DNA of 64,000 nucleotides from Planctomycetota bacterium (GCA_016200225.1 JACQFD010000008.1:16433-80432); one strand, 5' to 3'. Shown: positions 26,106 to 48,640, counted from the first letter of the stretch. The notes: generated by a model not told the origin, from the sequence alone. Program-made: numbers and translations.

Positions 26106-26157
26106 GTAAAAACAGCGACAGGACCACTTCTGTCCCGCTTTTCTCCCCCCAACCACA

Positions 26158-26394
26158 CCCCATTCCCGTCGATCGCCGGGCTCCGGTTCCGCGCGAGTTC
26201 CGCAGCCGGCTCGAATGCAAACGCTCTGCGTTTGCATTCGCCGGCGAGGACCTGCCGAGCGCCGGAACCGGTCCCGGCGATCGTCAAAAATACATATATT
26301 ATTATTAAAAAAATAATAAGTCCCCGCGGGCTGAGCGAAAAGCCCTCGCGGGCTGAGCGGAAGGCCCTCGCGGGCTGAGCGAAACATTCCCTTC
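26158..26394. repeat. Left copy (R-L) of a ~240 bp direct repeat: long hairpin, AT-rich spacer, 3 tandem 21-22 nt units, stub of aconitase 3' end
   Basis: Near-identical to 37128-37385 (offset 10970). Ends in GCGAAACATTCCCTTC versus GCGAAACATCCCTTC at the aconitase 3' end. Confidence 0.95.
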
Positions 26395-26428: not shown

Positions 26429-29047
26429 TCAATTCGTAATGTCAACCTTCAATCCGCGCGACGTAACAATATCGTAAGTTGCCGTCGTGATGGCGCGCCC
26501 GTCGGCGACGCGCTCGACCCAAAGCGATTGAATGTAGAATGTCATTCCGACCAAACCGGGATCGTTGGGAATCGGCGTCGCGGCGTACGCATTTCCCTGT
26601 GCATCGCTATAAATATCAAATAACACAAAGGTCGTCGACATTGCCAGATCTACGTGAATCATTGCGCCGACGCCGAATGCGTCGCTGCCCGCGAAGTCGA
26701 TCACGTCGCCGCCGTAGCCGAGGCCGAGCGAGCTCGCCGGAGCGTTCGTGCATGTTAAATTAAAAGTCATATCATTAATTCTAGGCGAACGCGGCGCGCC
26801 CATGGCGAGGCGCCCCGAAGCGCCGCCCGAGCCGGTTCCGTAATGACTCATTCCAAACGGCTGCGAGCCGGCGTCGAAAATCACGGTGACGTTGTCATTC
26901 GTCGGATTCGCCGTGACGAAATCTACTTTTCCGCGCAACTTGAAATCGGCGCATGCAAGCCCGGCCGGGTTCAGTCCCGTCGAAACCGACGTCGCCGAGG
27001 CCGCTCCAAGCACGCGCCGGATCAACGCACTTCCACCCTCGCTCGTATTGATAAGTTCTCCGATTCCATCGCCCGTAATATCTGTAAGAATTACACCGGT
27101 TGGATTCGCGCCAGCGGGATGGATCGCGGGCGCGCCAAATCCGCCGCCGCCCGCGCCGATGTACAATGCAAGATCATTGGTAGTATACTCGGCCATGACA
27201 ATATCCATGACGCCGTCGCGATTCGCATCGCCCGTCGCGATGGCGACGGGTTTCATGCCCGGGGATAAGTTTAATGACGCAAGCGAGAAGACGCCCGCTC
27301 CCACGTTAATAAGTATATCCATATTGCTCGATCCCGCAAGAATGCCCTCCTCGGCGATGGCCAGATCCGGCAATCCGTCGCCGTTGAAGTCCTGAAGGAG
27401 GATCGCATTGACTTCATTAAAATATGCGTTGTAAACGGGGAGCGCGAATGAACCACCCCCATTGTTCATAATGATTCCGTATCCGGATCCGGTCGGAATC
27501 GGGCCGGCGCCGAGGTCGACATAACCAAAAACAAGATCCGGATCTCCGTCCATGTCGATATCTGAAATAACAATTGAATTCGGCTGGTGAATCAGTGGAA
27601 TCGTGCTAATACCTCCGGTCAATTGTGTGCCGGTTCCATGAATAATCGTCAGCGTGCTTCCGAGGAAATCGGCTGTTACAATATCGAGATTTCGATCGCC
27701 ATTGACGTCGGCGATCGCGAGCGCCCGGGGTCCATTTCCGACAACAGGTACCAATGGAGCCGAAAACCCTCCCGAGCCGTCGCCGAAACGAATCATAACA
27801 TTATTCGAGTTTTCGTTTACAACCGCAAAATCGGGAAAACCGTCCTCGTCGATATCCGCGGTCGCGACCGCGACAGGACTCAAGAATGCCGAAATGATTG
27901 TATCCGATACGACCGGGTCGAGTCCCTGGTTGAATAGTATATTAATGATCCCGTCGATCGCCGGCGTCTCGCCGCAAACGGCCGCGTCGGTCCTTTGATC
28001 GCCGTTCCAATCGGCGAGCGCAATTGCGCGGGGCCGCTGGTTTCCTATATGCATCTCATTCATCGAAAAACCGCCTGATCCGTTATTTTGATAGGCATCG
28101 AGCGTGGCGTCGGTCACCATCGCGCTCGCGTGGTGGCAACTAACAAATACATCCGCGAGGCCGTCGCCGTCGGCGTCGGCCGCCGAAAGCCGCATCGGCT
28201 CCACGTGCGTTGGAACATTATGGATGGCAATCAACAGACCCCCGCCGTTGTTCCCGATCACGCCAAATTGATCGCTCGCCGTTCCGTAACATACCAATAC
28301 TTCGGGCGCCCCGTCGCCCGTCGTGTCAGCCACGAAATGATCGACGGCCGGAAAAGGTAATATAAATATAAATTCCGGGCTGAAGGTCATCGCGGGTCCG
28401 CCTTTGCGCACGGCGACGGCGAGCGGCGCAAGACACACCAAATCGAGTTCGCCGTCGTGATCCAAATCCGCGACTCTTAGTTTTTCAACGCCGACTGCGG
28501 ACGCGTACACGGGCACACCCGCAAGAGTTCCGTTTCCAAAGCCTGTCCAAATCGCAGTGCCGGGGCCGATCCAAATCTCCGCGCAATCGAGATTGCCATT
28601 TTGATCGAAATCGCCCGCCCCGACGCCGCCGGAGGGCCCCGCAACGTGAGATATGCTAAACGTATTTGCTAACATTCCGGCTCCATCCCCGGTGAAAATA
28701 CAGATTTGGTAACCTCCCGACGCGACGGCATCGAGATTGCCATCATTATTATAATCGCCAATTGTAATAAATTGCGGCGTCATCGCGACGGCGGGCGGCG
28801 CAAACGATGGCGGCAGCAGAAGTCCCGTTCCCTGTCCAAGCCGTAACTCAAGCCGCGCCGCAGGCCCGTCGTGCGCCGTTAACAGATCCTCGATTCCATC
28901 ATTATTAAAATCGCCCGCCGCCGCATCCGCCGCGGAATTGTTAGGTCCCGTCCCGTAGGTTTCGGGCTGTGTGTACGTCTGCGCGAGGGCGCTGCCGGAA
29001 AGAACCGCGGAGAGAACGAGGAGGGCAGGGGCTGGGGTTATTCGCAT
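26429..29047 (-). CDS. FG-GAP/VCBS repeat (integrin-alpha-like beta-propeller) secreted protein 1
   Basis: Signal peptide from ATG 29047; more than ten GDFNxDGxxDL-type repeats; C-terminal IPNDPGLVG domain. Confidence 0.9.
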   Translation of the reverse strand: MRITPAPALLVLSAVLSGSALAQTYTQPETYGTGPNNSAADAAAGDFNNDGIEDLLTAHDGPAARLELRLGQGTGLLLPPSFAPPAVAMTPQFITIGDYNNDGNLDAVASGGYQICIFTGDGAGMLANTFSISHVAGPSGGVGAGDFDQNGNLDCAEIWIGPGTAIWTGFGNGTLAGVPVYASAVGVEKLRVADLDHDGELDLVCLAPLAVAVRKGGPAMTFSPEFIFILPFPAVDHFVADTTGDGAPEVLVCYGTASDQFGVIGNNGGGLLIAIHNVPTHVEPMRLSAADADGDGLADVFVSCHHASAMVTDATLDAYQNNGSGGFSMNEMHIGNQRPRAIALADWNGDQRTDAAVCGETPAIDGIINILFNQGLDPVVSDTIISAFLSPVAVATADIDEDGFPDFAVVNENSNNVMIRFGDGSGGFSAPLVPVVGNGPRALAIADVNGDRNLDIVTADFLGSTLTIIHGTGTQLTGGISTIPLIHQPNSIVISDIDMDGDPDLVFGYVDLGAGPIPTGSGYGIIMNNGGGSFALPVYNAYFNEVNAILLQDFNGDGLPDLAIAEEGILAGSSNMDILINVGAGVFSLASLNLSPGMKPVAIATGDANRDGVMDIVMAEYTTNDLALYIGAGGGGFGAPAIHPAGANPTGVILTDITGDGIGELINTSEGGSALIRRVLGAASATSVSTGLNPAGLACADFKLRGKVDFVTANPTNDNVTVIFDAGSQPFGMSHYGTGSGGASGRLAMGAPRSPRINDMTFNLTCTNAPASSLGLGYGGDVIDFAGSDAFGVGAMIHVDLAMSTTFVLFDIYSDAQGNAYAATPIPNDPGLVGMTFYIQSLWVERVADGRAITTATYDIVTSRGLKVDITN

Positions 29048-29168: not shown

Positions 29169-31787
29169 CTAATTCGTAATATCCACCTTCAATCCGCGCG
29201 ATGTGACAATATTGTAAACGGCATTCGTCGTTGCGCGCCCGTTCTCCGCGCGTTCGACCCAGATCGATTGAATATAAAATGTCATCCCGACGAGTCCGGG
29301 ATCATTGGGTATCGGAGTCGCGGCGTACGCGTTGCCCTGCGCATCGCTATAAATATCAAATAATACAAACGATGTCGAACTCATGAGATCGACATGGATC
29401 AGCGCGCCGACGCCAAATGCATCGCTGCCCGCGGAGTCGACCGCGTCGCCGCCAAATCCGACGCCGAGCGAGTTCGCGGGAGCGCCTGTGCAAGTTAAAT
29501 TATAATCCAGATCATTAATTCTCGGCGAACGGATCGCGCCCATCGCGAGCCGCCCCGAGGCGCCGCCCGTGCCGGTTCCGTAGTGACTGATTCCAAACGC
29601 TTGCGAACCGGCGTCAAGGAGAACGGTGGAATTATTACCAATCCTGTTGGCCGTCACAAAGTCTACTTTTCCCCGCGATTTGAAATCGGCGCAGGCGAGC
29701 GCGACGGGCCCTGCGTCGGTGGCAACCGACGTCGCCGTCGCCGCGCCGAGCACACGGCGGATCAATGCATTTCCGCCTTCGCATGTATTGATGCATTCAC
29801 CCATGCCGTCGCCCGTAATATCTGTAATGATCACCGCGCTCGGACCCGCGCCGGCCGGGTAATTCACCGGTGAAAATGGGAACACTCCGCCGCCGAGGCC
29901 CATAAACAAAGACAGTTCATTCGTGTCGTGTTCGGCGACTACAATATCCATGATGCCGTCGCGATTCACGTCTCCCGTCGCAATGGAAACGGCATGAATA
30001 CCCGACGAATCGGAGACTCCGGAAAGCATATATGCGCCGCCGCCCATGTTTATATATATGAGCAACTCCGACTTCACTGCCGCGATGCTCGTACAAACCG
30101 CCACGTCGGACAGTCCATCGCCGTCGAAATCCTGCAGAACGGCCGATTCGCAGGAAATGACCGACGCATAATAAACCGGCGCTCCGAAGACGCCGCCGCC
30201 GCCGTTTAAGATAACTCCAAATCCAGATAATGTCGTGCCGAAAAACGGTACAAACTCAAAATAAGTAAATATAAGATCCGGGTCGCCGTCCATGTCAAGA
30301 TCGGCCACCGCGATGGAATTTGGATGATATGCAACGGCAACCGACACGGAAGCGCCGAAACCGCCGGCGCCGTCGCCAAATATACAAGTAAGCGTGTGGC
30401 TCGCCCAGTCCGCGGTCACCAGGTCAAGATTATGATCACCATTCAAATCCGCGATGGCAAGCCCTCTGGGACCTCCGCCTGTTGCAACCATCGCCGGCGC
30501 GGAGAATCCGCCCGAACCGTTGCTCAAACGGACGGAAATATCATTGGTAGCTTCGTTCGCGATCGCGAAATCGGAGTGGCCATCTTCATTAAGATCTCCC
30601 GTCGCAACGGCGCTCGGACTGCCGCCGCCCGACGCTAACGAAACGGCGTTGACAGGATCGAGCCCTTGCCCAAATACGACTGCAAGGACGCCGACCGCGG
30701 CCAGCGTTTCGCCGCCAATGGTAGCATCGATTCTTCGATCGCCGTTCCAATCCGCGAGCGCGAGGGCGCGGGGCGTATGGCTGCCGATGAGCGTAGTATT
30801 TACAGAAAGTCCGCCCGCGCCGTCGTTTTGATACACATCGAGCGTCGCGTCGCCCACCATCCCGTTTTTGTGGTGACACGTTACAAATAAATCATTCATG
30901 CCGTCGCCGTCGGCGTCGGCCGCGGAGATTCGCATCGGCTCGAGGTTCGACGCATAATTATTGATTGCGACCAACGTTCCCGCGCCGTTGTTTCGAAGGA
31001 CGCTGAATTGGTTTGCCATAAATCCGTAGCATACGAATACTTCCGGGGCGCCGTCGCCCGTGAGATCGGCCGTTCCAAAATCCTCCGCCGGATTGGGTAA
31101 TATAAAGAACTGTTCGGCTCCAAATGTGAATGCGGGACCGCCGTTGCGAACGGAAATCGCCGCCGTGGCCATATCGACGAGATCATCTTCGCCGTCAACG
31201 TTTATGTCGGCGATTCTTAATTTTTGGACGTTGACTCCGGATCCGATAACCGGACCCAATGCCAAAGCGCCCGCGCCATTGCCGGCCCAGATCGCCGTGC
31301 CGGGGCCGATCCAAATCTCGCCGCAGTCCGGGTTTCCATCATGATCGAAATCGGCAGCCGCGACGCCTCCGGTGGCGATCCCCGCGTGGTTGGCGCAGAA
31401 AATACTAACGATCGACCCCGCACCGTTGCCTCGAAACAAACAAATCCCCGTTCCGCCGGACGCGATCGCATCCAGTTTTCCATCATTATCATAATCGCCA
31501 ATTGTTAGAAACGCCGGCGCCATCGCGGCCCCGGGAACCGCGAACGTCGGCGGCAGCAGCAGGCCCGTCCCCTTCCCAAGTCTCAATTCCAGGCGCGCCG
31601 CCGGCCCGTCGTGCGCCGTTAACAAATCCGCGATGCCATCATTATTAAAGTCCCCCGTCGCGGCGTCGGCGGCGGAATTGTTAGGTCCGGTGATATACGA
31701 ATCGGGCGACGTGAACGTCTGCGCAAGCGCGCGGCCGGATTGGATTGCGGGAAAAACCAAGAGCGCGGGGAGGATCAATTTTCGCAT
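29169..31787 (-). CDS. FG-GAP/VCBS repeat secreted protein 2 (tandem paralog of 26429-29047)
   Basis: Colinear with protein 1 over its whole length; same N-terminus (TGPNNSAADAA.GDFNNDGI.DLLTAHDGPAARLELRLG) and same C-terminus (VTSRGLKVDITN). Confidence 0.9.
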   Translation of the reverse strand: MRKLILPALLVFPAIQSGRALAQTFTSPDSYITGPNNSAADAATGDFNNDGIADLLTAHDGPAARLELRLGKGTGLLLPPTFAVPGAAMAPAFLTIGDYDNDGKLDAIASGGTGICLFRGNGAGSIVSIFCANHAGIATGGVAAADFDHDGNPDCGEIWIGPGTAIWAGNGAGALALGPVIGSGVNVQKLRIADINVDGEDDLVDMATAAISVRNGGPAFTFGAEQFFILPNPAEDFGTADLTGDGAPEVFVCYGFMANQFSVLRNNGAGTLVAINNYASNLEPMRISAADADGDGMNDLFVTCHHKNGMVGDATLDVYQNDGAGGLSVNTTLIGSHTPRALALADWNGDRRIDATIGGETLAAVGVLAVVFGQGLDPVNAVSLASGGGSPSAVATGDLNEDGHSDFAIANEATNDISVRLSNGSGGFSAPAMVATGGGPRGLAIADLNGDHNLDLVTADWASHTLTCIFGDGAGGFGASVSVAVAYHPNSIAVADLDMDGDPDLIFTYFEFVPFFGTTLSGFGVILNGGGGVFGAPVYYASVISCESAVLQDFDGDGLSDVAVCTSIAAVKSELLIYINMGGGAYMLSGVSDSSGIHAVSIATGDVNRDGIMDIVVAEHDTNELSLFMGLGGGVFPFSPVNYPAGAGPSAVIITDITGDGMGECINTCEGGNALIRRVLGAATATSVATDAGPVALACADFKSRGKVDFVTANRIGNNSTVLLDAGSQAFGISHYGTGTGGASGRLAMGAIRSPRINDLDYNLTCTGAPANSLGVGFGGDAVDSAGSDAFGVGALIHVDLMSSTSFVLFDIYSDAQGNAYAATPIPNDPGLVGMTFYIQSIWVERAENGRATTNAVYNIVTSRGLKVDITN

Positions 31788-37093: not shown

Positions 37094-37127
37094 CATCAAG
37101 GCACACATCCTCGCGACCGCCAACCTC

Positions 37128-37385
37128 CCCCATTCCCGTCGATCGCCGGGCTCCGGTTCCGCGCGAGTTCCGCAGCCGGCTTGAATGCAAACGCTCTGCG
37201 TTTGCATTCGCCGGCGAGGACCTGCCGAGCGCCGGAACCGGTCCCGGCGATCGTCAAAAATATATATATTATTATTAAAAAAATAATAAGCCCCCGCGGG
37301 CTGAGCGAAAAGCCCCCGCGGGCCGAGCGAAGAACCCTCGCGGGCTGAGCGAAAAGCCCCCGCGGGCCTAGCGAAACATCCCTTC
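37128..37385. repeat. Right copy (R-R) of the ~240 bp direct repeat, 4 tandem units, overlapping the aconitase stop codon
   Basis: Matches 26158-26394. The last unit GGCCTAGCGAAACAT contains the TAG stop of the aconitase-family gene on the minus strand. Confidence 0.95.
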
Positions 37386-39347
37386 GCGATACTCCGAAAT
37401 CCGCCCCTTCACCGCCGACGCCGCGACGCTCATCGGCGATGCTAAATATAATTTTCCGGGACCGGATCGTCCTTGAAAATTACGATTGATCGCGGAAACG
37501 GTGACTTGTTCCCGCGTTTCCGACACGCCGGGGCCGCATCCAATGCACGCGCCGCAGCCGGGATGTATCAATTTGACGCCCATGCGCTCGAACATTTGTG
37601 TATATCCTTTTTCCTTCGCGTAGCGTTCGACGGTTTCGCTTCCGTACTGAATATAAAAATGAACGCCGGGCGCGAGCCGCCGTCCCGCGCGCTCGGCATC
37701 CGCGATGACGGTGGCGTACGCGTCGATGTCGTCGAATTTGCCAGCCGTGCAGGAACCGCCGTACGCGATGTCAATTTTAGTATCCGGCAATTGTGATATT
37801 AATTTTCCATACGTCGGATCGCCGGGCTCGGCGACGCGCGGTTCGATCGCGTCCAGTTCGATGCGATGGACGCCGCCGTCGTAGTGCGCGTCCGCGTCGG
37901 GCCGCACGGCGCGGCGTTTCATCGGCTCGATTTGCGCAGGCGACAGTTTTCTCATGTTCGCGATCCACTCGAACGTCCGTTCGTCGGCCTCGCAAACGCC
38001 GCCCGCCGCCGAACACTCGGTGGCCATGTTCGTGAGCGTCGCGCGCTCGTCCATCGTTAAATTTAATAATCCGGGCCCGCCGAATTCCATCACGCGGTCG
38101 AGCGTGTCCTCGTTTCGCGCGTATTTGTCGAGAATATGTAATATAACATCTTTTGCCATCACGTTGGGCCGGAGTTTTCCGAACAATTCGAAACGGATCG
38201 ATCCGGGCACGCGCACGAACGTGTGTCCGGCATGCGCGAGCCCGGCGTACTCCGTGGCGCCGACGCCCCAACTGAGCGCGTTGCTGCCGCCGCCCATGCA
38301 GGTGTGGCTATCTGTAGCCTGTACAAAATCGCCGGGATTCACAAACTGTTCGCGCGCGACTTGATGACAAATTCCGGGCGAAATGCCGCCGACCGCCGAA
38401 TAATCGCGGCAGCCGGTGTGCCGCTGGAATTCTTTTTGTAAATCGCGCAATGTTTGTATCTGCGCGGCGAACTTCATCATCTTCGCGACGCCGTCGGCAT
38501 AAAGTAAATGATCCTCGAACACCGCGAAATTCCCAGGATTCTTTAACTTATAATCCGCGCCGTACTCCTGACCTAGAAAATAGTGCACTTGCGCCGTCGT
38601 GAATTCGTGGCTGTAACCCGAATCGACGCCGACGAGCACCGAGTCGCCCGGTTTCAAGCAGGCTTTCGCGCCGGCGTCCGCGAGCTGCCCGGGCAGCAGG
38701 TGATTCACGAGTACTTTTTCGGCCATGGTCATCGGCCGCGCCGAATTGTTAATTTTCGGTAATTGTATCTTTCCGGCCGCGAGCGCTTTTGTAAACGGGA
38801 ACAGCCCCCCCTCGCGCAACACAATTTGCGATATCGGATCGTACGGTTTCAAAAACTCGCCGACGGGCACGCGTTCGCCGTTTTGTAAACGTTCGAGAAT
38901 CGCGTGGCCGGCCATCAACTGTCCCTGTTGAATATTGTTACGTTCGTGAATCGGCGCGAAGCTCGCAGCGATCACGATGCGGATCCCGCACCATTTTTCG
39001 CACTGCACGGCCGTCTCACGCGAACTCCCGGTTCCTTTGCGATGGCCGGACACGATCGCCTCAAAATTGCCGTCCATCAGAGCGCGCGTTCCGAAAACGC
39101 GTTCCCCTTTTTCGTCGAGCAGCCCCGCGTACGCGTCGAGCGCGATGTCCTGCGGCCTATAACGAAAACAGACCCACGCGGGCGTCATCACGTCGGTGTT
39201 GATGTCGTCGAGCAGGTCCTCGACGCGCACGTCGCGCATTTTTAAATTTAACTTTCCGGCGAGTTGAGCGCGGATCAATTCCGGATCTTTTGTTAAGAAA
39301 AGAATGCGCTTGCCGGACGCGAGCGTGATAAAATCGGGATGCCGCAT
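37368..39347 (-). CDS. Aconitase-family [4Fe-4S] hydratase; LeuD-like swivel domain fused N-terminal to a LeuC-like domain
   Basis: DDINTD, GSSRE swivel motifs first, then DSHTC, GGSCT, GCGACIG (cluster Cys) and INRNFQGRSG, ASP..VAASA. Start 39347 or 39380. Confidence 0.9.
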   Translation of the reverse strand: MRHPDFITLASGKRILFLTKDPELIRAQLAGKLNLKMRDVRVEDLLDDINTDVMTPAWVCFRYRPQDIALDAYAGLLDEKGERVFGTRALMDGNFEAIVSGHRKGTGSSRETAVQCEKWCGIRIVIAASFAPIHERNNIQQGQLMAGHAILERLQNGERVPVGEFLKPYDPISQIVLREGGLFPFTKALAAGKIQLPKINNSARPMTMAEKVLVNHLLPGQLADAGAKACLKPGDSVLVGVDSGYSHEFTTAQVHYFLGQEYGADYKLKNPGNFAVFEDHLLYADGVAKMMKFAAQIQTLRDLQKEFQRHTGCRDYSAVGGISPGICHQVAREQFVNPGDFVQATDSHTCMGGGSNALSWGVGATEYAGLAHAGHTFVRVPGSIRFELFGKLRPNVMAKDVILHILDKYARNEDTLDRVMEFGGPGLLNLTMDERATLTNMATECSAAGGVCEADERTFEWIANMRKLSPAQIEPMKRRAVRPDADAHYDGGVHRIELDAIEPRVAEPGDPTYGKLISQLPDTKIDIAYGGSCTAGKFDDIDAYATVIADAERAGRRLAPGVHFYIQYGSETVERYAKEKGYTQMFERMGVKLIHPGCGACIGCGPGVSETREQVTVSAINRNFQGRSGPGKLYLASPMSVAASAVKGRISEYREGMFR

Positions 39348-39420
39348 GCGAGGATCATCGTACGCCGAAACCCTAATCACAACATTTCGTCAAACACGAC
39401 GAATCTGCGATTCCCCATTC

Positions 39421-40395
39421 GTGCCGTCGATTCCTTTTCTGCCGCATCCGTGCCTCCGCGGCGCGCACGCGCAGACGCTTTTCGGGACAATGGGAGCCGG
39501 TGATTTGGTGCCGGCCGCGCGCGAACACCGCGTCGAACTCGAAGACGGCGACTCGATGGTGCTCCACGAGGACCCGCCCACGAGTGGTACGATCGCCTCG
39601 CGCGCCGCGCTTTTAGTGCATGGACTTACGGGCGATCACGCGGCCGGATACATGGTCCGCGTCGCCGCGCGCCTTCGCGAGCGCGGATACACGACGTTTC
39701 GCGCCGATTTGCGCGGCGCGGGGCGTTCCGCCTCAATGTGTAGAAAGTTTTATCATAGCGGCGTCAGTTCCGACGTCGCCGCGGCCGTCCGGTTCATATC
39801 TAAAAGATCCGGACGTCTGCCGATCGACCTCGTGGGGTTCTCGCTCGGCGGAAATATTATATTAAAATACGCGGCCGAGCGTCTTTACAAAAAAGACGGG
39901 CCCGGAATTCATATCAATAAGATCGCCACCGTGAGCGCGCCCGCCGATCTGGCGCGGAGTTTTTCGAAACTGAGCCGCGGCTTCGGACGCTTTTACAATC
40001 GTTATTTTACAAAACACGTCGTGCGCACGCTCGACAACCATTTAAAACTCGTCCCGGGCGCCGCGGTCGCGCGTTTCGCGCGCAAACCGCGCACGATGCT
40101 CGAAATCGTCGAAGGCTACACCGCTCCCGTGCACGGATTTTCGAGCGCGCTCGATTATTACGAAAAGTGTTCGTCGGCGCCGCACTTGGCGAATATCGAG
40201 ATTCCAACGCTTGCTATTATTTCGCGCGACGACCCTTTGGTCGACTCCACCGCGTACGAAGATTTCCGCGGCACCACCATCCGCGTACTCTTAACAGAAG
40301 CCGGCGGCCACATGGGATTCTTCGCCAAATCCGGATCGGATCCCGATCGAAGATGGATGGACTGGCGAATTGTAGAGTGGTTGACGGAAGCGTGA
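39421..40395 (+). CDS. YheT-like alpha/beta fold hydrolase
   Basis: HAQT, LLVHGLTG, GFSLGG nucleophile elbow, DDPLV, GGHMGF. GTG start at 39421 chosen to avoid overlap with the divergent gene. Confidence 0.9.
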   Translation: MPSIPFLPHPCLRGAHAQTLFGTMGAGDLVPAAREHRVELEDGDSMVLHEDPPTSGTIASRAALLVHGLTGDHAAGYMVRVAARLRERGYTTFRADLRGAGRSASMCRKFYHSGVSSDVAAAVRFISKRSGRLPIDLVGFSLGGNIILKYAAERLYKKDGPGIHINKIATVSAPADLARSFSKLSRGFGRFYNRYFTKHVVRTLDNHLKLVPGAAVARFARKPRTMLEIVEGYTAPVHGFSSALDYYEKCSSAPHLANIEIPTLAIISRDDPLVDSTAYEDFRGTTIRVLLTEAGGHMGFFAKSGSDPDRRWMDWRIVEWLTEA

Positions 40396-40407
40396 TGTAG
40401 TTTAACA

Positions 40408-40442
40408 AACCGGCCGCCGGGATTCTCCCGCGGCGGCCGGTT
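40408..40442. terminator. GC-rich hairpin between convergent genes, likely bidirectional terminator
   Basis: AACCGGCCGCCG...CGGCGGCCGGTT perfect 12 bp stem. Confidence 0.65.
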
Positions 40443-40462
40443 CGATGCCGAAAACATTAGAT

Positions 40463-41500
40463 TTATAACTTCACGTTTTCCTTATGTTTGTCGCAGGCTT
40501 TTTTGGCTTTCTGACAGGCGGCGCACTCGGATTTGTAGCCGGGCATGCCCTGATCGACCAATTCCTGCGCGTGTTTCTTCGCCGTATCGGCGATTTTGGT
40601 GCCGGGGCAGGATTTGATCAATTCGGCGTAGACCGCGACGGCTTTTGTGTATTCTTTCGCGGTCTCGAATTCGTGCGCTTTTTCGTACTTCTCGCCGCCG
40701 GAAAGCTCGGATTTAAATTTAGCGTTCGATTCGAGCGATTTTAAGAATTCGGCCGCGTCTTTCGTCGTCGGAAACGGCGGCGCGGCTTTGGCGACGGTCT
40801 GTACGAGGCGAACGGCTTCATAAATAAAACCGTCATCGTTGGCTTTCTTCGCGGATGTTAACGATGAATCCGCCTCGCTTTCGAGAAATTTAGTAAATCG
40901 CTCCGTCCACGCTTTGTCCGCGCCGGAGATTTTCTTAATATCCGCGTACGCTTGCGAAAGTTTGCGCGCGCGGAGCGAAGCCATCACGGGCGCGAACTTT
41001 TCGGGAACGACGCGGCCTTTCTTCGCGCTCGCGAGCGCCGCCATGACTTTCTGTTCCGCCTCGGCGGCGCCGCCGGAAAATATAAGATTTCCGCCCGGAT
41101 CGAGCGCCGCGCCCGTCGGAAAGAACTCCACTTTCAACGCGACGTCGAAATCTTTATTTTTAATAATAACGATCGGGTACGTCGGCTTGAATTTTTGTAC
41201 AAATTGATCGACAAGCTTCGGATCCTCGTCGGTCACCGCGATGACGACCAAACCGTCGGCTTCCTTCTTTTCAGACGTGGTGTTGAGACCGGGGACCCCG
41301 GCCTGGCAGGGTCCTCACCACGTTCGAAAAATATCGAGATAAACGGCCTTGCCTTTCAATTCCGAAAGCGTTAGCGGCGGCGAATTATACCATTTTACCG
41401 CGTCGAATTCGGGGGGCGGCGCGCCGAGTTTTGCCTGCGCGGATGCGGCGGGAGCGAGCGCGCCCGCGACGGTGAGAATCGCGATTGTGATGTTTCGCAT
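40463..41500 (-). CDS. Selenocysteine-containing TlpA/redoxin-like protein (UxxC) with C-terminal helical/TPR-like region, 345 aa
   Basis: ORFs 41315-41500 and 40463-41251 are in one frame, separated only by TGA at 41315-41317. Readthrough gives signal peptide...GKAVYLDIFRTW-U-GPCQAGVPGLN...GLVVIAVTDED...FFPTGAALDPGG. Confidence 0.85.
41286..41304 (-). promoter_or_regulatory. Putative bacterial SECIS hairpin
   Basis: +11 to +29 after the UGA: AGGCCGGG-GUC-CCCGGUCU, an 8 bp stem (one G-U) with a G-first apical loop at +19. Confidence 0.65.
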
Positions 41501-41532
41501 ATTAGTAATAATAACGTTGGTGAACGAGAAAA

Positions 41533-41949
41533 TTATGATTTTCGCCTGCGGTAGACGGCTTTCATAATAGTGAAAAAGCCGCCGTCCGGCGTCGGGAGTT
41601 CGATCGTAAATAACAATTCGTCGGGCGTAATTTCGCGCGTCGTTTCCTTTAATTTAGAAACGCCCATGGCCGATTGCATCTCGCCGACAAACGTCATCGT
41701 TTTCGCGCGTTCGTCGAGCGTGCCGGTCATGTTGAGGATCGACGTCGACATCGAATCGACCCAGCAATGCACATATTTTTGCTGCATCATATCAAATCCG
41801 GCGACGCCGTGGCCCGTGAAGGGGCGGCCCGCCATGTCGCCGCGAAAGTCCATCACTTGCCAAAGTCCCCCGCCGGTCATGCGAATGTTCATTTCGCCCG
41901 CCCCGATCATTCTGCACCGGAATCCGCGAAAATATGCGAGACAAATCAC
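41533..41949 (-). pseudogene. DUF1579 family copy A, 5'-degenerate or truncated
   Basis: GGLWQVMDFRGDMAGRPFTGHG...WVDSM matches the DUF1579 gene at 47069. The upstream in-frame sequence (..GPHGDLQS*ISEV..) is interrupted by a stop and has no signal peptide. Confidence 0.6.
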
Positions 41950-42132
41950 TTCGGAAATTCAGCTTTGGAGGTCCCCATGCGGCCCGATCGTCGAGGGCTT
42001 CTGGAACCGTTGCCCGGCTGTGCCTTCCGGAGAGTTTGAATGATTCATGGGGTCGATTTCGCACGATCATCGTTCTTGACAATTCTAGCCGCATTGAAAT
42101 ATAAATTCTAATCCTGCAACACCCGAAAATTC

Positions 42133-43692
42133 ATGTCACTATCAAGAATTCTACTAATCATTTCGTGCGTCGTTCTTCTACTCATGAGCGGAAACGCGGT
42201 GGATGCCGCGGTTTTCAGTCCATTTAAACCCGTCGCTGTATTTATATCAAATCAGGTTGGCACGGGCAAGGCCGAGTTGTTTTCAACCAATATTATTGGA
42301 TCACCAGATTTAAATTTATCCGACAATCTCGTAACCGGCGGAAACGTCTCGTCGTTTACGTGGTCTCCGAACCGAAAATCGGTCGGGTTTATCGCCGACA
42401 AGATCACGGATGGTGTTCCCGAATTATTTATAGTTTCCGTGACAGGGAGCGCACTGGTTCGAGTATCTGCGCCCCTTGCCGCCGGCGAGTCCGTGACTCT
42501 TTTTGTATGGTCGCCGAAATCAAATAAGATCGCGTACGCAGTCTCCTCGGCCGGTCACATTTCCGTCCACGTCGTGAATCCCGACGGTTCCGCAAACGTG
42601 AAAGTAGGACAGACGCAATCTGTCAATTCGATCACTGCCGCGAAAGTTGCATTTTCGCCGAAGAGCGATAAATTAATGTTCATGGTCGATAACGATACAT
42701 CGGGAGAGACAGATGTGTTTGTTTGCAACGCCGACGGTTCGAATATTCTTAATATCTCCTCCCCAATGGTCGTCGGCGGCACGTCAGGGGCCGCCGCGTG
42801 GTCCCCGGATTCGAAATTCATCGCATACGTTGCGGACAAACTAATTGATGACAAGTCGGAATTATTCATTTGCAAGCCCGACGGCACCGGAACGCTAAAA
42901 ATGAACGGAACGCTTGTCGCGAATGGTAATATTTCAAGTTTTGCGTTTTCGCCAAATGCGAAAAGCATCGTGTATCGGGCCGATGAAGTGACGGACAATA
43001 TCTTCGAATTGTTTGCGACCAACGTGGACGGAAGCGGAAAGGTAAAGATCTCGCCCGCGCTTTCGGCGACACAGGACGTCGCGAATGTTATCAAATGGTC
43101 GCCGAAAGGCGATCACGTCGCTTATTTTGTCACCGATACGGTTGCTGCAAACCCAACGGGTATATTCGTAGCGAAGCGCGACGGTTCGCAGAATATACAA
43201 ATCAGCCCGCCTGCCAACAAGGCCAAGAGCATCGGCGGAATTGTATGGACAAAGGACTCGAAATCGATCATTTACGAAGCGGATCAGAACGTACTGGGGC
43301 AGCTGGAGTTATTCAGGGCGGCCCGCGACGGCTCGAAGATGACCGATCTCGTGGCAGGCCTTGTGACAACTGGGAGCACGTCTGGATTTAATATATCGCC
43401 AAAGACCGATCGCGTCGCGTTCGCGGCCAGCGAAACGTCGACGGGTCCTGTTGAAGGCTACGTCGTCCGCGCGGACGGCACAAACCTTACAAAAATTTCG
43501 ATTCCGCCGGGTGCGAACAAACTTGTTAAAGCACCGTTCTTCGCGTCAAAGCAAAATCGGATTATTTACAAAGAAGACAATTTGACGGACGGAACCAGCC
43601 TATTGTTTATTTCCAATGCGACGGGAAGCATGATCGAGCTCCTTTCATTCCAAGCGGGATCGGGCTCCGTCGTAAGTTTCGAAGTCGAATAA
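42133..43692 (+). CDS. Secreted TolB/PD40-like beta-propeller protein
   Basis: Signal peptide; about 8 repeats of WSP.(S)K.(I)AY.AD......ELF....DG. Confidence 0.85.
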   Translation: MSLSRILLIISCVVLLLMSGNAVDAAVFSPFKPVAVFISNQVGTGKAELFSTNIIGSPDLNLSDNLVTGGNVSSFTWSPNRKSVGFIADKITDGVPELFIVSVTGSALVRVSAPLAAGESVTLFVWSPKSNKIAYAVSSAGHISVHVVNPDGSANVKVGQTQSVNSITAAKVAFSPKSDKLMFMVDNDTSGETDVFVCNADGSNILNISSPMVVGGTSGAAAWSPDSKFIAYVADKLIDDKSELFICKPDGTGTLKMNGTLVANGNISSFAFSPNAKSIVYRADEVTDNIFELFATNVDGSGKVKISPALSATQDVANVIKWSPKGDHVAYFVTDTVAANPTGIFVAKRDGSQNIQISPPANKAKSIGGIVWTKDSKSIIYEADQNVLGQLELFRAARDGSKMTDLVAGLVTTGSTSGFNISPKTDRVAFAASETSTGPVEGYVVRADGTNLTKISIPPGANKLVKAPFFASKQNRIIYKEDNLTDGTSLLFISNATGSMIELLSFQAGSGSVVSFEVE

Positions 43693-43700
43693 CTGGGACC

Positions 43701-43736
43701 GAGAGGCGGCGGGGACGCGGCCCCGCCGTCGTTCTC
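43701..43736. terminator. Hairpin between convergent ORFs
   Basis: GGCGGCGGGG-ACGCGG-CCCCGCCGTC stem-loop. Confidence 0.55.
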
Positions 43737-43763
43737 ATCAATCATTATTGTCTTTATCGTTAG

Positions 43764-44136
43764 CTACTTCCGCCGCGTGTAATCGATCTGTAGCATTTTA
43801 TTCTCGACGCCGAGGTCGATCTCGCTGAGCGTCATCGTTCCCGCGTCGTTCCCGTGATATTGAAAGACGTTTTTGTAATATACGACTTTATTGTTACGCA
43901 TCGGATCGGGCGCCGAAGCATAAGTCGTCATCGTATTGGTCGCCGCGTCATAGGATCCCTCGTACACCGCGCCGATCGGATTCATCGAATCGACGCAGCA
44001 ATGCACATATTTTTGCTGCATCATATCAAATCCGGCGACGCCGTGGCCCGTGAAGGGGCGGCCCGCCATGTCGCCGCGAAAGTCCATCACTTGCCAAAGT
44101 CCCCCGCCGGTCATGCGAATGTTCATTTCGCCCGCC
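43764..44136 (-). pseudogene. DUF1579 copy B, chimeric fragment (middle of copy A joined to 3' half of copy C)
   Basis: 43983-44136 = 41749-41902 (154 bp, 1 mismatch). 43764-43994 = 47069-47299 (231 bp, 3 synonymous mismatches seen). The two tracts overlap in CATCGAATCGAC. Confidence 0.9.
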
Positions 44137-44145
44137 AGTGGATAC

Positions 44146-46869
44146 CTATTGTACGGTGATTGAAAGGGCGCGTGAACTTACAAGCTGAGAGTCGCCCGCG
44201 CCACAGTTTTCGCCGATCGAAGCGTCCTCGAGAAATATGAATTCGATGTATCTTACGATTCCATGAAGGTTCGGATCATTTGGAATCGCGATGGGCAGGA
44301 ACCCCTGGCCGAATCGATTACAATTCAGCGGACAGGCCGCGAGCCCCGACGAGGCAAAAGGATCCACATATAATAATAGATTAACGAAGAAAAAGTCGGC
44401 GCCGTTTGGATTTGACACATCGCCCAGAATCGCCGCGCCGGCCGCGCCGCGCGGAGCATTGGTTACGTATACGCCAAAAAGTGAATTCCCAACCGTTGGA
44501 AGCGACGCCACGGAGACTCCCATGACTCCGAAACAGCCGGGTGTTGCCGTGCCGATTGGCGATGTGCCGGAGTAGATTGTTTGTATATTCATTAAACTAT
44601 AAATCGTCGACGATCCAAAAAACGCGGCGTCGACGCGGCCGTCGGAATCGAGGTCGCCAAGCGCTGGATAATCCGTAACCAGTGGAGTGGAAATAATACT
44701 TGGAAAGGTGATCGATCCGGATCCATCATTAAGGAATGGCGCGATGACATGCGCTCCGGGAAATCCGATCATCGCATCATTTGAACCGTCTCGATTCAGG
44801 TCGACGCAGAGCAAGCTGCTAATTCCATATGTAACAGCGGGAATTTTTACTGGCGGGCCCGCGAGACCTAATCCGGTATTATAATAAACAAAGAGCTGGA
44901 TCGGATCGACGTTCTGCGCCGACATTAGAAGTAAATCGAACTGCGCGTCGCCATTCAAGTCTACCAATGTAATCGACTGAGGATAGGCCACCGCCGGATC
45001 GACGACCTGTGGAGGCAAAAACGTGCCATTCCCATTGCCGATATAGTAAGAAGTTAAAAAATTGATAATGTCCGCGACTCCATCATTATTGATGTCGCCG
45101 ACGTCAATTTTGAGCGGAGTCGTGGCCGTCGACGCCGGAAGCGACGCCCCCTGCGCAAATGCACCGACGCCATTATTAATATATATTTCGGTGGCCTTTC
45201 GCGCGATGACGAAATCCGGGGAGCCGTCGCCGTTCAAGTCGGACACATGGGTCTCGGCACCTGCGCTGGTTGAAAGGTTTTGATGTGGCTGAATTGTCTG
45301 GGATAATTGAAATGTCCCGCCAGCGCCCCCATGATAGATATTAACAATTTTCTTATCATTCGCCGGAATTATCATATCCAATACACCGTCCAAATTCAAA
45401 TCGGCAACGGCCACGTCGCCAATTCCGGCTGAAGTGAATACTGAAAAATCGGATGTGAATAGAAATCCCCCGACACCGTCGCCATTCAGGATCGTTACTT
45501 TGCTTGCGTTTGCGCACACGTCGTCCAATTTTCCGTCGCCATTGATATCCACAAGTTTTGATATGTAACAAGAACTTGGCGCGGCAAAACTCTGGAAGGC
45601 CGTGAAAAATCCACCCAAGCCGTTGCCCCGCTTGATACCAACCCGATCAATATTAGATTCGGCAAAGACCACGTCCTGTTTGCCGTCGCCGTCGAAATCG
45701 GCCGCGCGCGCACAGACCGATTCAATGAGTGAATCGACGAATACAGGATTCACGGCGCCGCCGTTCCCGTCCCCAATTGTCAGCGTACATCCGCCCGTTG
45801 CAAGATATGTGAGCGGATTTGCCGCGATGAAATCCGCTTTTCCGTCAGCATTATAATCTCCAAGGTCGAGACAATCCGGTGATGCGCCCGAATTGGAATT
45901 AATAATCGTTGGAAACTGACCCTGCCCGTTACCGAGGGCAATTGTAAGGATATGGTTCGGAATCGCCGATATTAAATATATATTCGGTCCCCTCCAGAAA
46001 AAGACAGAATACCCGGAGTAACTGCATCCGACGACCAGGTCTTCATTTCCGTCGAAATTTGCGTCGAGGATCCGCACATTCGACGGCCCAAGCTCGGTTA
46101 TAACTACAAAAAATGGCGGAAATACGCCCGGAGAACTAGCGAGAGAGACTTGAGCTGTCTTGGCGGCAATGTATGGAAGCGGACCTGACGAGGGCGAGGG
46201 AACGAAGCCGACGGATTGGTATTTATTCGTTACGACAAGATCCGGAAGTCCATCGTGATTCAGGTCTCCGGTCGCCGCGTCGGAAGGATAGTAGCCGGCA
46301 AAGAGCTTGGTTGAACTGGTGAACGCGCCAGTGTTATTCGCGAAGGCAATACTAATATCCTGGGTCGATGCCTGCAGGTGGGTTGTCACAACATCGATGA
46401 AACCATCCAGATTCAGGTCGGCCGCCGTGATACTTGACGTGTTTCCGAGAATGATTGGATACGAGGCGCCTTGTGGAAAACCTCCGAGTCCATTTCCTAA
46501 GAATACCGTAAATGCTCCCGATTGGCCGCCCGCGCAAAGGATATCAAGTTTTCCATCTTGATTCATATCGGCCACGGCGATCGGGCCAGGTCCCGTGCTG
46601 ACACTAATATACTTCACGTCAAAGGGCTGGCCGTTTAATTGATTTAAGAGAATCGCGATTGAACCGGTTGGCGTCGATGTTACCAATGTTACGGCGGAAT
46701 CGGGCGCTCCGTCCTGATTGAAGTCCGCCACGACCATCCCGGCGGGACTATTGGAAAGCAGTACACAATCATCCTTAAAGATCCCCTGCGCGTTCGCGCG
46801 CGATAATAACAATACAAAGAGACTAATGAATACGCCCGTCCACGCTGATTGAGTCAAAAGCTGCCGCAT
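44146..46869 (-). CDS. FG-GAP/VCBS repeat secreted protein 3
   Basis: Signal peptide from ATG 46869; ADFNQDGAPD-type repeats; C-terminal ...AIPNDPNLHG...VSSRALSITVQ domain. Confidence 0.9.
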   Translation of the reverse strand: MRQLLTQSAWTGVFISLFVLLLSRANAQGIFKDDCVLLSNSPAGMVVADFNQDGAPDSAVTLVTSTPTGSIAILLNQLNGQPFDVKYISVSTGPGPIAVADMNQDGKLDILCAGGQSGAFTVFLGNGLGGFPQGASYPIILGNTSSITAADLNLDGFIDVVTTHLQASTQDISIAFANNTGAFTSSTKLFAGYYPSDAATGDLNHDGLPDLVVTNKYQSVGFVPSPSSGPLPYIAAKTAQVSLASSPGVFPPFFVVITELGPSNVRILDANFDGNEDLVVGCSYSGYSVFFWRGPNIYLISAIPNHILTIALGNGQGQFPTIINSNSGASPDCLDLGDYNADGKADFIAANPLTYLATGGCTLTIGDGNGGAVNPVFVDSLIESVCARAADFDGDGKQDVVFAESNIDRVGIKRGNGLGGFFTAFQSFAAPSSCYISKLVDINGDGKLDDVCANASKVTILNGDGVGGFLFTSDFSVFTSAGIGDVAVADLNLDGVLDMIIPANDKKIVNIYHGGAGGTFQLSQTIQPHQNLSTSAGAETHVSDLNGDGSPDFVIARKATEIYINNGVGAFAQGASLPASTATTPLKIDVGDINNDGVADIINFLTSYYIGNGNGTFLPPQVVDPAVAYPQSITLVDLNGDAQFDLLLMSAQNVDPIQLFVYYNTGLGLAGPPVKIPAVTYGISSLLCVDLNRDGSNDAMIGFPGAHVIAPFLNDGSGSITFPSIISTPLVTDYPALGDLDSDGRVDAAFFGSSTIYSLMNIQTIYSGTSPIGTATPGCFGVMGVSVASLPTVGNSLFGVYVTNAPRGAAGAAILGDVSNPNGADFFFVNLLLYVDPFASSGLAACPLNCNRFGQGFLPIAIPNDPNLHGIVRYIEFIFLEDASIGENCGAGDSQLVSSRALSITVQ

Positions 46870-47068
46870 CGAATTCGTCCATTGGTTAGCAAACCGACAA
46901 ATGGAACCGGGACACCCTACCCGGGAACGCCTCCCCACGGGGGCCTAAAATAAATTTGCAATGCAGCGCGCCGTTGTCGGGAACGCGGAGAGCCGTTGCC
47001 AGCCGCGCGACCCGAAACCGGTTCGCGCGGCCTTTCAGGCGGCCAGAAACGCAATAATAAATCGAATC

Positions 47069-47695
47069 CTATTTCCGCCGCGTGTAATCGATCTGTAGCA
47101 TTTTATTCTCGACGCCGAGGTCGATCTCGCTGAGCGTCATCGTTCCCGCGTCGTTCCCGTGATATTGAAAAACGTTTTTGTAATATACGACTTTATTGTT
47201 ACGCATCGGATCGGGCGCCGAAGCGTAAGTCGTCATCGTATTGGTCGCCGCGTCATAGGATCCCTCGTACACCGCGCCGATCGGATTCATCGAATCGACC
47301 CAGTATGTTACAAATTTTCCCTTGACCGGATCATAACCATTCAGTCCGTGGCCGGTGAACGGCGTTCCCATGAAATCGCCGCTGAACTCGACCACCTGCC
47401 AGAATCCGCCGGCGGAAGTTTTTCGCGTCTCCATGGCCTTGCTCACCATTTCGGGCGCCGACGGATCGGGGCGCATTTTAATAACTGCGTCCCAGACTCC
47501 GTCGTTTTGTTGTATCATCGCGTGTTGCGGACCCGGCTTCGGCATCGCCGCATCCATGCTCATCGCCATCGACGCGTCCATCGTTGCCATCGCGCCGGAC
47601 GATTTCTTGTCGTTAGTCCCAGACTTGCATGCTACAAATACAAGAAGCCCCGCGGAAATAACGACTGCTTTCAAGGAAGTGTTTTTATTCATCAT
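47069..47695 (-). CDS. DUF1579 family lipoprotein, copy C (intact)
   Basis: Lipobox-like LLVFVA-C; PKPGPQH, GVWD, GGFW, FTGHG..GYDP.K.KFV.YWVDSM. Confidence 0.85.
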   Translation of the reverse strand: MMNKNTSLKAVVISAGLLVFVACKSGTNDKKSSGAMATMDASMAMSMDAAMPKPGPQHAMIQQNDGVWDAVIKMRPDPSAPEMVSKAMETRKTSAGGFWQVVEFSGDFMGTPFTGHGLNGYDPVKGKFVTYWVDSMNPIGAVYEGSYDAATNTMTTYASAPDPMRNNKVVYYKNVFQYHGNDAGTMTLSEIDLGVENKMLQIDYTRRK

Positions 47696-47986
47696 TGGGT
47701 TTACGTAATATAACAAACAGGGTTTTCAGGCGGCCATCGCCCCGCCAATACGGGGCGATCGCGGAACGTCCGGAAATGAATAGCCCGAAATTACGTGTCA
47801 TTCGTCCTCAATACCAACAAAATCGCCCTCTAAAACCCGCATTACTCATGAAGTCTATGAAGATGGCCGACAGTGTGTCGCCAAATGTAAGGCGCGACGA
47901 CGGCGCGACCGAGCACGGTCTCGCCGGAGGAGCAACGCAACAGTTGGCGGCACAATGTGTGGCCAGATTCGTGGAATTCATGAATA

Positions 47987-48640
47987 ATGCGGGTTAACAT
48001 GCCTTCCGCCGCGACCGCAATTCTTTGGGATCTCGACGGCACGCTCGTCGACAGCGAACCGCTGCACCGGCGCGCGATTCTGGAGGCGCTCGCCGCGCGC
48101 GGCGCCGATCCGACAGCGCTCGATCCGCGCGATTTTGTCGGGCGCGGCGAGCGCGATTTCTGGCTTTTTTGTAAAGATCGATTCTCTCTCGCCGAACCGG
48201 TGGAGGCGCTCGTCGATCATAAAGATTCGATTTATACAGAAATGGTCCGCGTCGAATTGCAAGTAATGCCGGGCGCGATCGATTGCCTCGAACAATTCGC
48301 CGCGGCGCGCAAACCCATGGCGATCGCCTCCGGTTCGTCCCCACGAGCGATCGCCGCGGCGGTCTCCGCCGTCGGCCTTGGTCACTACTTCCGCGAACTC
48401 GTATCGTCGCTCGACCCGGCCGTCCGTCGCAGCAAACCGCACCCGGATGTTTTCCTCGAAGCGGCGCGCCGACTCGGCGTAGACCCGCGGGAATGTTTGG
48501 TCATCGAAGACGCACAATGGGGAGTGCGCGCAGCCGTTGCGGCGGGAATGCGCGTCATTGTCGTTCCTAACAGTTGGACCCGCGATCATGATTTTTCGGG
48601 GGCCGAAAAAGTATTAAAGTCGCTGGCGGAATTAAAGTAA
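47987..48640 (+). CDS. HAD-superfamily phosphatase (beta-PGM/CbbY-like)
   Basis: DLDGTLVDSE, ASGS, KPHPDVF, EDAQWG motifs I-IV. Start may be 47999. Confidence 0.95.
   Translation: MRVNMPSAATAILWDLDGTLVDSEPLHRRAILEALAARGADPTALDPRDFVGRGERDFWLFCKDRFSLAEPVEALVDHKDSIYTEMVRVELQVMPGAIDCLEQFAAARKPMAIASGSSPRAIAAAVSAVGLGHYFRELVSSLDPAVRRSKPHPDVFLEAARRLGVDPRECLVIEDAQWGVRAAVAAGMRVIVVPNSWTRDHDFSGAEKVLKSLAELK

Follow-up and report, generated by a model that had tools for sequence, protein, structure and literature searches.

Gene conversion and concerted evolution are known among bacterial paralogs, for example in the tuf genes and other duplicated loci, and chimeric paralogs can form by non-allelic recombination or unequal crossover between parents that lie in direct orientation on one replicon and are both kept. 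An arrangement resembling the latter occurs in a 64,000-nucleotide (nt) stretch of DNA from a Planctomycetota bacterium, hereafter the window, which is contig C26:16433-80432 of a 5.3 Mb metagenome-assembled genome (MAG) of 40 contigs from a groundwater metagenome. Here three genes of the DUF1579 family, which we call A, B and C, are interleaved with two genes encoding secreted beta-propellers, one of FG-GAP and one of PD40 type. We find that B is a real A/C recombinant whose junction is neither collapsed nor chimeric, and that the 5' truncation of A and B, with the boundary they share at GGCGGGCGAAATG, is an artefact of assembly at k=141. As an account of the whole locus, we consider it likely that a hybrid made by recombination between A and C is combined with artefactual truncations and an artefactual shared boundary. 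B is an ordinary recombinant paralog between two secreted beta-propeller genes, and the appearance of a cargo slot is largely an assembly artefact; the locus is ordinary because its degenerate copies and common boundary stem from assembly error.

The composition of B is evident from alignment to its two parents. Positions 43983-44136 match A at 41749-41902 in 153 of 154 nt (one mismatch), and positions 43764-43998 match C at 47069-47303 in 231 of 235 (four mismatches). The A-derived and C-derived parts overlap by 12 nt, CATCGAATCGAC, at a point where A and C share 16 nt. This agrees with the initial annotation, which had described B as a segment of A joined to the 3' end of C through a 12-nt overlap encoding VDSM. 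In its read-based form, approximately the first 269 nt of B from the ATG are A sequence (256 of them exact) and the last ~231 nt to the TAG are C sequence. Three differences separate B from C in the 3' part, all of them synonymous (AAA to AAG, GTT to GTC and TAC to TAT). The sole non-synonymous change in B, TGG to TGC at 43995, lies at the junction and converts Trp to Cys. This residue, W139, is one of only two that are invariant in a 66-sequence DUF1579 alignment; C and A retain it within the W-x-D-S motif of the family, and B carries Cys in its place.

The features of the locus, in window coordinates and in minus-strand order, are as follows.

47069-47716, minus strand: C, full-length DUF1579 gene (PF07617, E 5e-36, 124 bits, profile positions 1-155 of 155)
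47069-47303, minus strand: c2, the 3' part of C from WVDSM to the stop codon, duplicated in B (231/235 identical to 43764-43998)
44146-46938, minus strand: secreted FG-GAP/VCBS beta-propeller gene (Pfam FG-GAP_3, E 2e-67)
44136-44137, no strand: artefact junction, ~120 nt absent (TAGAC and 115 nt of the 5' coding region)
43764-44126, minus strand: B, hybrid DUF1579 gene as in the MAG (PF07617, E 1e-24, 87 bits, profile from 35/38 to 155)
43983-43998, minus strand: recombination junction in B, within 16 nt common to A and C, CTGGGTCGATTCGATG, encoding WVDSM
42133-43692, plus strand: secreted PD40/WD40-like beta-propeller gene, 519 amino acids (Pfam PD40; Logan contig L029)
41902-41903, no strand: artefact junction, ~145 nt absent (30 upstream nt and 115 nt of the 5' coding region)
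41762-41902, with a second copy at 43996-44136, minus strand: exact A/B repeat, 141 nt in the MAG and ~256 nt in read contigs
41533-41949 (open reading frame, ORF; gene part 41533-41902), minus strand: A, A-type DUF1579 gene as in the MAG (PF07617, E 6e-27, 95 bits)

Independent evidence came from Logan contigs (k=31) for four public runs of groundwater samples (X1-X4), which, as expected, are interrupted where the repeats begin and end; 97% of the 31-mers of the region were found in X1 and X2. A 61-nt unitig (43965-44025) crosses the B junction at a depth of 10.8 in X1 and 10.4 in X2, versus ~13-16 for the genome, and its k-mers combine C-specific with A-specific bases. The junction is also crossed by contigs of 110 nt in X3 and 151 nt in X4. 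A chimeric assembly, which the initial annotation had named as a danger to its claim, is therefore answered by independent contigs spanning the junction in four runs. Collapse by the assembler at this point is ruled out by k-mers that span both parental parts at about single-copy depth. Import of a foreign FG-DUF1579-PD block was also considered and is ruled out, as B is 98-100% identical to A and C.

Contig depths further bear on how the segments are connected. The unique segments are nearly equal in X1 (14.2, 14.6, 12.9 and 16.2), and their depths are equal in two samples; the A-type and C-type repeat cores reach 29.2 and 22.7, respectively, versus ~14 for the flanks, which fits two copies of each repeat per genome. 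In the read-based arrangement, the minus strand carries C (c1 and c2), a terminator region with the FG-GAP gene, a 14-nt spacer and a complete B (a1 and c2), followed by 71 nt, the end of the PD40 gene on the opposite strand, ~260 nt and a complete A (a1 and a2). C-FG-GAP-B-PD40-A is the only single-molecule path in the repeat graph, although it is not proven by spanning reads. The order proposed by the initial annotation is supported, with the amendment that the PD40 gene lies on the plus strand. An alternative in which B and PD40 form a separate ~2.3 kb circle or excisable unit, leaving C-FG-A on the chromosome, would use the same graph edges (junction, repeat, PD40 and c2 in the circle), and the exact 256-nt repeat does exceed the reads. 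However, segment depths are equal in both samples, the unit holds no replication or recombinase gene, and a 1:1 circle devoid of replicon function is itself unlikely; we find this alternative barely credible.

The two ends of the duplicated segments behave differently in the contigs. Sequence divergence immediately after the stop codons of C and B holds as first described: both junctions lie inside single contigs (L044 and L029), and the similarity of B to C ends at the stop codon. The shared divergence upstream of GGCGGGCGAAATG in A and B, by contrast, exists only in this assembly. No Logan contig crosses 41902|41903 or 44136|44137 as written in the window, and the junction words at both sites occur in none of the indexed runs. 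Instead, a 257-nt repeat contig (the core at depth 29.2) continues 115 nt past the 41903 boundary, with sequence found nowhere in the MAG. This extension encodes ...IAPGAPSLEW|AGEMNIRM, which is homologous to the N-termini of the intact A-type orthologues G001 (PGAPPVEW; 162 amino acids) and P0002 (PGAPALEW; 159 amino acids), whose corresponding regions read PGAPPVEWKGEV and PGAPALEWRGQM.

The flanking contigs supply the start of the gene. L029, which carries PD40, begins with AGGGCCGGGTTGCGGCAGCAGCATGTTCAT, followed by 30 nt and then window position 41903; L044, which carries FG-GAP, ends ...CAATAGGTATCCACTTAGAC and then ATGAACATGCTGCTGCCGCAACCCGGCCCT. The same terminal 30-mer, ATGAACATGCTGCTGCCGCAACCCGGCCCT, is present in both contigs and begins at an ATG encoding MNMLLPQPGP (MNMFPTPGP in G001); it has no exact match among JGI metagenome contigs. 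In L044 the FG-GAP stop codon lies 14 nt ahead of the intact B start. The 115-nt extension supplies 38 codons ahead of the Trp, a single codon more than the relatives have, and this fit indicates that the pieces join as one complete gene in both copies. A and B are accordingly complete genes of ~162 amino acids each, lengths that are joined from contig pieces with ~25-55 nt of 5' coding sequence unread. The description of A as degenerate must be withdrawn. Silent-cassette antigenic variation, which would involve 5'-truncated promoterless copies, is ruled out by the same contigs, in which both copies start at an ATG and have a complete N-terminus.

The position of the false boundary points to its source. 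In both copies the exact A/B repeat of the MAG spans exactly 141 nt between a copy-specific single-nucleotide polymorphism (SNP) and the point where identity breaks off. Maximal exact repeats over the whole MAG peak at 140 nt (17 repeats) and 141 nt (20 repeats), with a maximum of 142 nt, and most of those of 140-141 nt are overlaps between contig ends, the signature of a de Bruijn assembly at k=141. Two further repeats were tested, and at both the read contigs contain sequence absent from the MAG: 55 nt at C40:80884-81025 versus 84625-84766, and 5+34 nt at C12:126990-127130 versus 132761-132901. The fault at 141-nt repeats is systematic in this MAG and may truncate other genes. Internal repeats of 141-142 nt with the same shape also occur at C6:37502-37642 and C40:52228-52368, at C6:67093-67233 and C28:23282-23422, and at C36:1-141 and 2457-2597. 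The locus resembles known MEGAHIT-style errors at repeats longer than k in its 140-141-nt end overlaps, in internal repeats clipped to 141 nt and in the loss of adjacent sequence; it differs in that the exact joining step is not identified here. MEGAHIT graph operations, overlap merging and scaffolding were each considered as the source of the false joins, and none accounted for the 30 nt and 5 nt of unique sequence that were lost in addition.

Truncated forms of A and B might instead be real DNA, a strain variant or a programmed deletion, coexisting with the intact forms. An assembler normally needs reads for a junction, and the making of the false joins was not reconstructed. Yet in both copies the distance from the boundary to the copy-specific SNP is exactly k=141 nt, similar losses occur at two other 141/142-nt repeats of the MAG, X1 and X2 contigs pass unbranched through both sites, the junction words are in no indexed run, and two independent deletions with one common endpoint would be needed. 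Natural deletions cannot track the k of an assembler, and we therefore read the boundary as an artefact and a real truncation as very improbable. The initial annotation had argued against simple assembler collapse; this holds for the B junction, where the 61-nt unitig is near single-copy depth. The upstream edges are products of the k=141 assembly. The main value of these observations is one of caution, in that a striking boundary in a public MAG, together with two "degenerate" genes, was produced by assembly at k=141. In MAGs of this kind, a truncated gene or a sharp repeat edge should be verified with reads.

Structure prediction places the remaining, biological result in context. The AlphaFold model of C (predicted local distance difference test score 86) consists of a helix followed by a 10-stranded barrel, and its closest structures are the OssO/OlmO spirocyclases and nitrobindin (PDB 7sfp, 3wje and 2a13; target TM-scores 0.76-0.86). 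DUF1579 is thus predicted to be a nitrobindin-like 10-stranded beta-barrel. C resembles these calycin-type barrels in its predicted fold, at a sequence identity of only 10-13%; no DUF1579 ligand or function is known. A sequence search of the PDB with DUF1579 gave no match, and a literature search yielded no paper mentioning the family. The B junction falls at the end of strand 5 in this model, with the N-terminal helix and strands 1-5 derived from A and strands 6-10 from C, which makes B a half-barrel swap. What is left biologically is a clean swap of this kind between two DUF1579 paralogs, with an invariant Trp mutated at the junction; it is of modest interest for how paralog families diversify in Planctomycetota.

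Related loci show C and A in a simpler arrangement. In the same-genus genome G001 and in L028, a Logan contig from another sample (A-type protein 74% identical), a C-type gene and an intact A-type gene are adjacent with no gene between them. They are separated by a spacer of 91-116 nt that contains a terminator, and the pair adjoins the same HAD hydrolase gene in both. The B gene is in neither of these two informative relatives; G002 and G003, genomes of the same family, were left out because their loci lacked sufficient synteny. Among 185,579 species genomes surveyed for A-type relatives, only four loci were found, one of them in G001. Many of the best database matches are two-domain DUF1579 fusions of ~350-365 amino acids (P0012-P0017, P0019, P0020 and P0024), suggesting that the tandem DUF1579 pair is a recurrent unit, and the adjacent C/A pair may represent a two-barrel protein split into two genes. 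Gene order around the pair differs from that of G001 (39304-40395 and 37368-39380 versus L025), with the TlpA-like gene flanking the pair on the opposite side and the kor operon lying ~30 kb further away; these differences suggest rearrangements and accessory insertions in the region.

From these comparisons we infer how and when B may have arisen. C, of lipoprotein type, and A, of cytoplasmic type, represent the ancestral, conserved tandem pair, and B is derived. Because B switches once, inside the only 16-nt identity between A and C, it most likely formed by one non-allelic, microhomology-guided recombination or template switch between them. Gene conversion with A and C may have held B near-identical since. 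FG-GAP and PD40, situated between the paralogs and encoded on opposite strands, are ordinary genes for secreted beta-propellers. Three routes may have produced the flanks of B: a crossover between haplotypes; a C-B-A triplication with later insertions, with or without conversion; or a templated insertion, in which an A/C copy would have been placed between convergent FG-GAP and PD40 genes. Each route needs foreign DNA that abuts the B ORF exactly. Simple tandem duplication was also considered and is ruled out, as the interiors are unrelated and on opposite strands.

The first of these routes is the scheme of the initial annotation, in which a unit with identical boundaries and unrelated cargo occurs twice. 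The boundary at the stop codon and the unrelated interiors are real; the upstream boundary is an artefact, and the cargo genes lie on opposite strands. Under this scheme C-FG-A and C-PD-A haplotypes of a variable C-A slot were joined at the 16-nt microhomology, by crossover or by homology-facilitated illegitimate recombination after DNA uptake, the A of one with the C of the other, creating B. It is the only model to give c1c2-FG-a1c2-PD-a1a2 with unrelated interiors in a single event, and the few copy differences are synonymous, as expected of allelic variation. However, the four runs contain neither single-cargo haplotype, only one of the two "identical boundaries" is genuine, the cargo genes are oppositely oriented, and two independent insertion events, each removing the spacer as far as an ORF end, would be required. 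A fixed C-A arrangement lacking cargo variation in relatives had been named beforehand as evidence against the slot, and it is seen in part, C and A being adjacent without cargo in two relatives. We consider the haplotype crossover unlikely, and the concatenation of two slot alleles, although it is the only single-crossover model, is not needed and has no direct support.

A more specific form of the slot idea is that the C-A spacer is a hotspot taking secreted beta-propeller genes precisely from stop to start codon, and that the array represents two such alleles joined by paralog crossover; we judge this improbable. An integron-like slot would carry one recombination-site sequence at either end of every cassette; here the upstream candidate is an assembly artefact, a repeat scan found no inverted-repeat pair at the cargo ends, and the true limits of the repeated units are the ATG and TAG of the ORFs. 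No integrase or recombinase gene is present among the nine ORFs scanned (39304-48640), and no slot with differing cargo occurs in G001 or L028.

The second route, an older C-B-A triplication by unequal crossover with FG-GAP and PD40 inserted later, would rely on conversion to keep the ORFs identical, with A as the partner for the 5' half of B, C for the 3' half, and the flanks diverging. We regard this as possible but doubtful. Identity is confined to the ORF, the sole non-synonymous difference lies at the junction, the expected endpoint of conversion tracts from either parent, and the ~14 nt upstream of both starts are weakly similar with two indels, in an alignment made without a statistical test. 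But the absence of B from both relatives runs counter to an older triplication; conversion should also keep contiguous spacer remnants, yet identity stops at the ATG and TAG; and this route likewise requires both insertions to abut the ORF.

Several points weigh against our preferred account, a real A/C hybrid with artefactual truncations. Unequal crossover predicts a single switch, and B has one, in the 16-nt A/C identity at WVDSM; a plain C/A event of this type should also duplicate the intervening segment, and the two segments here, with FG-GAP and PD40, bear no relation to each other. Identity to the parents ends exactly at the ATG and TAG, which no simple model predicts. The evidence from the runs consists of assembled contigs and not raw reads, so a minor truncated variant may exist in the population. 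Reads are shorter than the ~256-nt exact repeat, and the linkage of copies to flanks comes from graph logic and depth and not from spanning reads. Finally, the software step that produced both false joins is not established, and this is the main gap in the artefact argument.

The genes of the locus are otherwise unexceptional. Profiles were scanned over the nine ORFs of 39304-48640 only, which encode an alpha/beta hydrolase, a TlpA-like protein (two ORFs), the DUF1579 proteins, the FG-GAP and PD40 proteins and a HAD hydrolase; the gathering cut-off of Pfam PF07617 (DUF1579) is 25.2 bits. C probably starts at 47695, giving 208 amino acids, and is a probable lipoprotein with a signal peptide ending ...LLVFVAC; Logan contigs match it with 0 mismatches along the gene. 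A has no signal peptide, and its MAG form covers the profile only from position 35/38 to 155. The FG-GAP protein has 907-930 amino acids (907 from the ATG at 46869) and is on record in its ATG form; no database record of a form with a GTG start was found. Its gene is one of at least 25 paralogs within the genome, and its C-terminal ~200 amino acids (44146-44740) form a domain common to more than 20 of these, of ~860-990 amino acids. The PD40 gene is convergent with B and divergent from A and has no syntenic homologue among 40 relatives. Its sole paralog, 41% identical, lies on contig C29 (G000:C29:146163-147662) and is probably a pseudogene, given two in-frame TAA stops. The 71 nt between B and PD40 hold a GC-rich hairpin seen in the sequence, which the terminator scan did not flag.

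Additional features were observed nearby and elsewhere in the genome. The TlpA/thioredoxin-like gene (40463-41500, minus strand) is split as two ORFs, 40463-41251 and 41315-41500; its G001 orthologue is one ORF with WCPPC. The window also contains a 240-nt direct repeat of 95% identity, 11 kb apart (26146-26384 versus 37117-37354), and inside that 11-kb block are diverged duplicates (26431-27243 versus 29171-29986, 77%; 27960-28999 versus 30700-31739, 71%). Dozens of copies of a dispersed ~300-nt repeat, at 90-94% identity, occur across the genome (for example, C14:100-420, C29:220160-220540, C31:119556-119859 and C20:265258-265570); this family may be MITE-like (miniature inverted-repeat transposable element) or REP-like (repetitive extragenic palindrome).

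Compared with known chimeric paralogs that arose through non-allelic recombination or unequal crossover, B is alike in that its single switch point lies within the longest identity shared by its parents. It differs in that its flanks are unrelated, and are not two copies of a parental spacer, and in that the identity stops precisely at the start and stop codons. Gene conversion of bacterial paralogs offers a second comparison. The two halves of B have different partners and relatives contain no older B, which sets the locus apart from such cases; near-identity limited to coding sequence, unrelated flanks and few differences, which are synonymous, are what it has in common with them.

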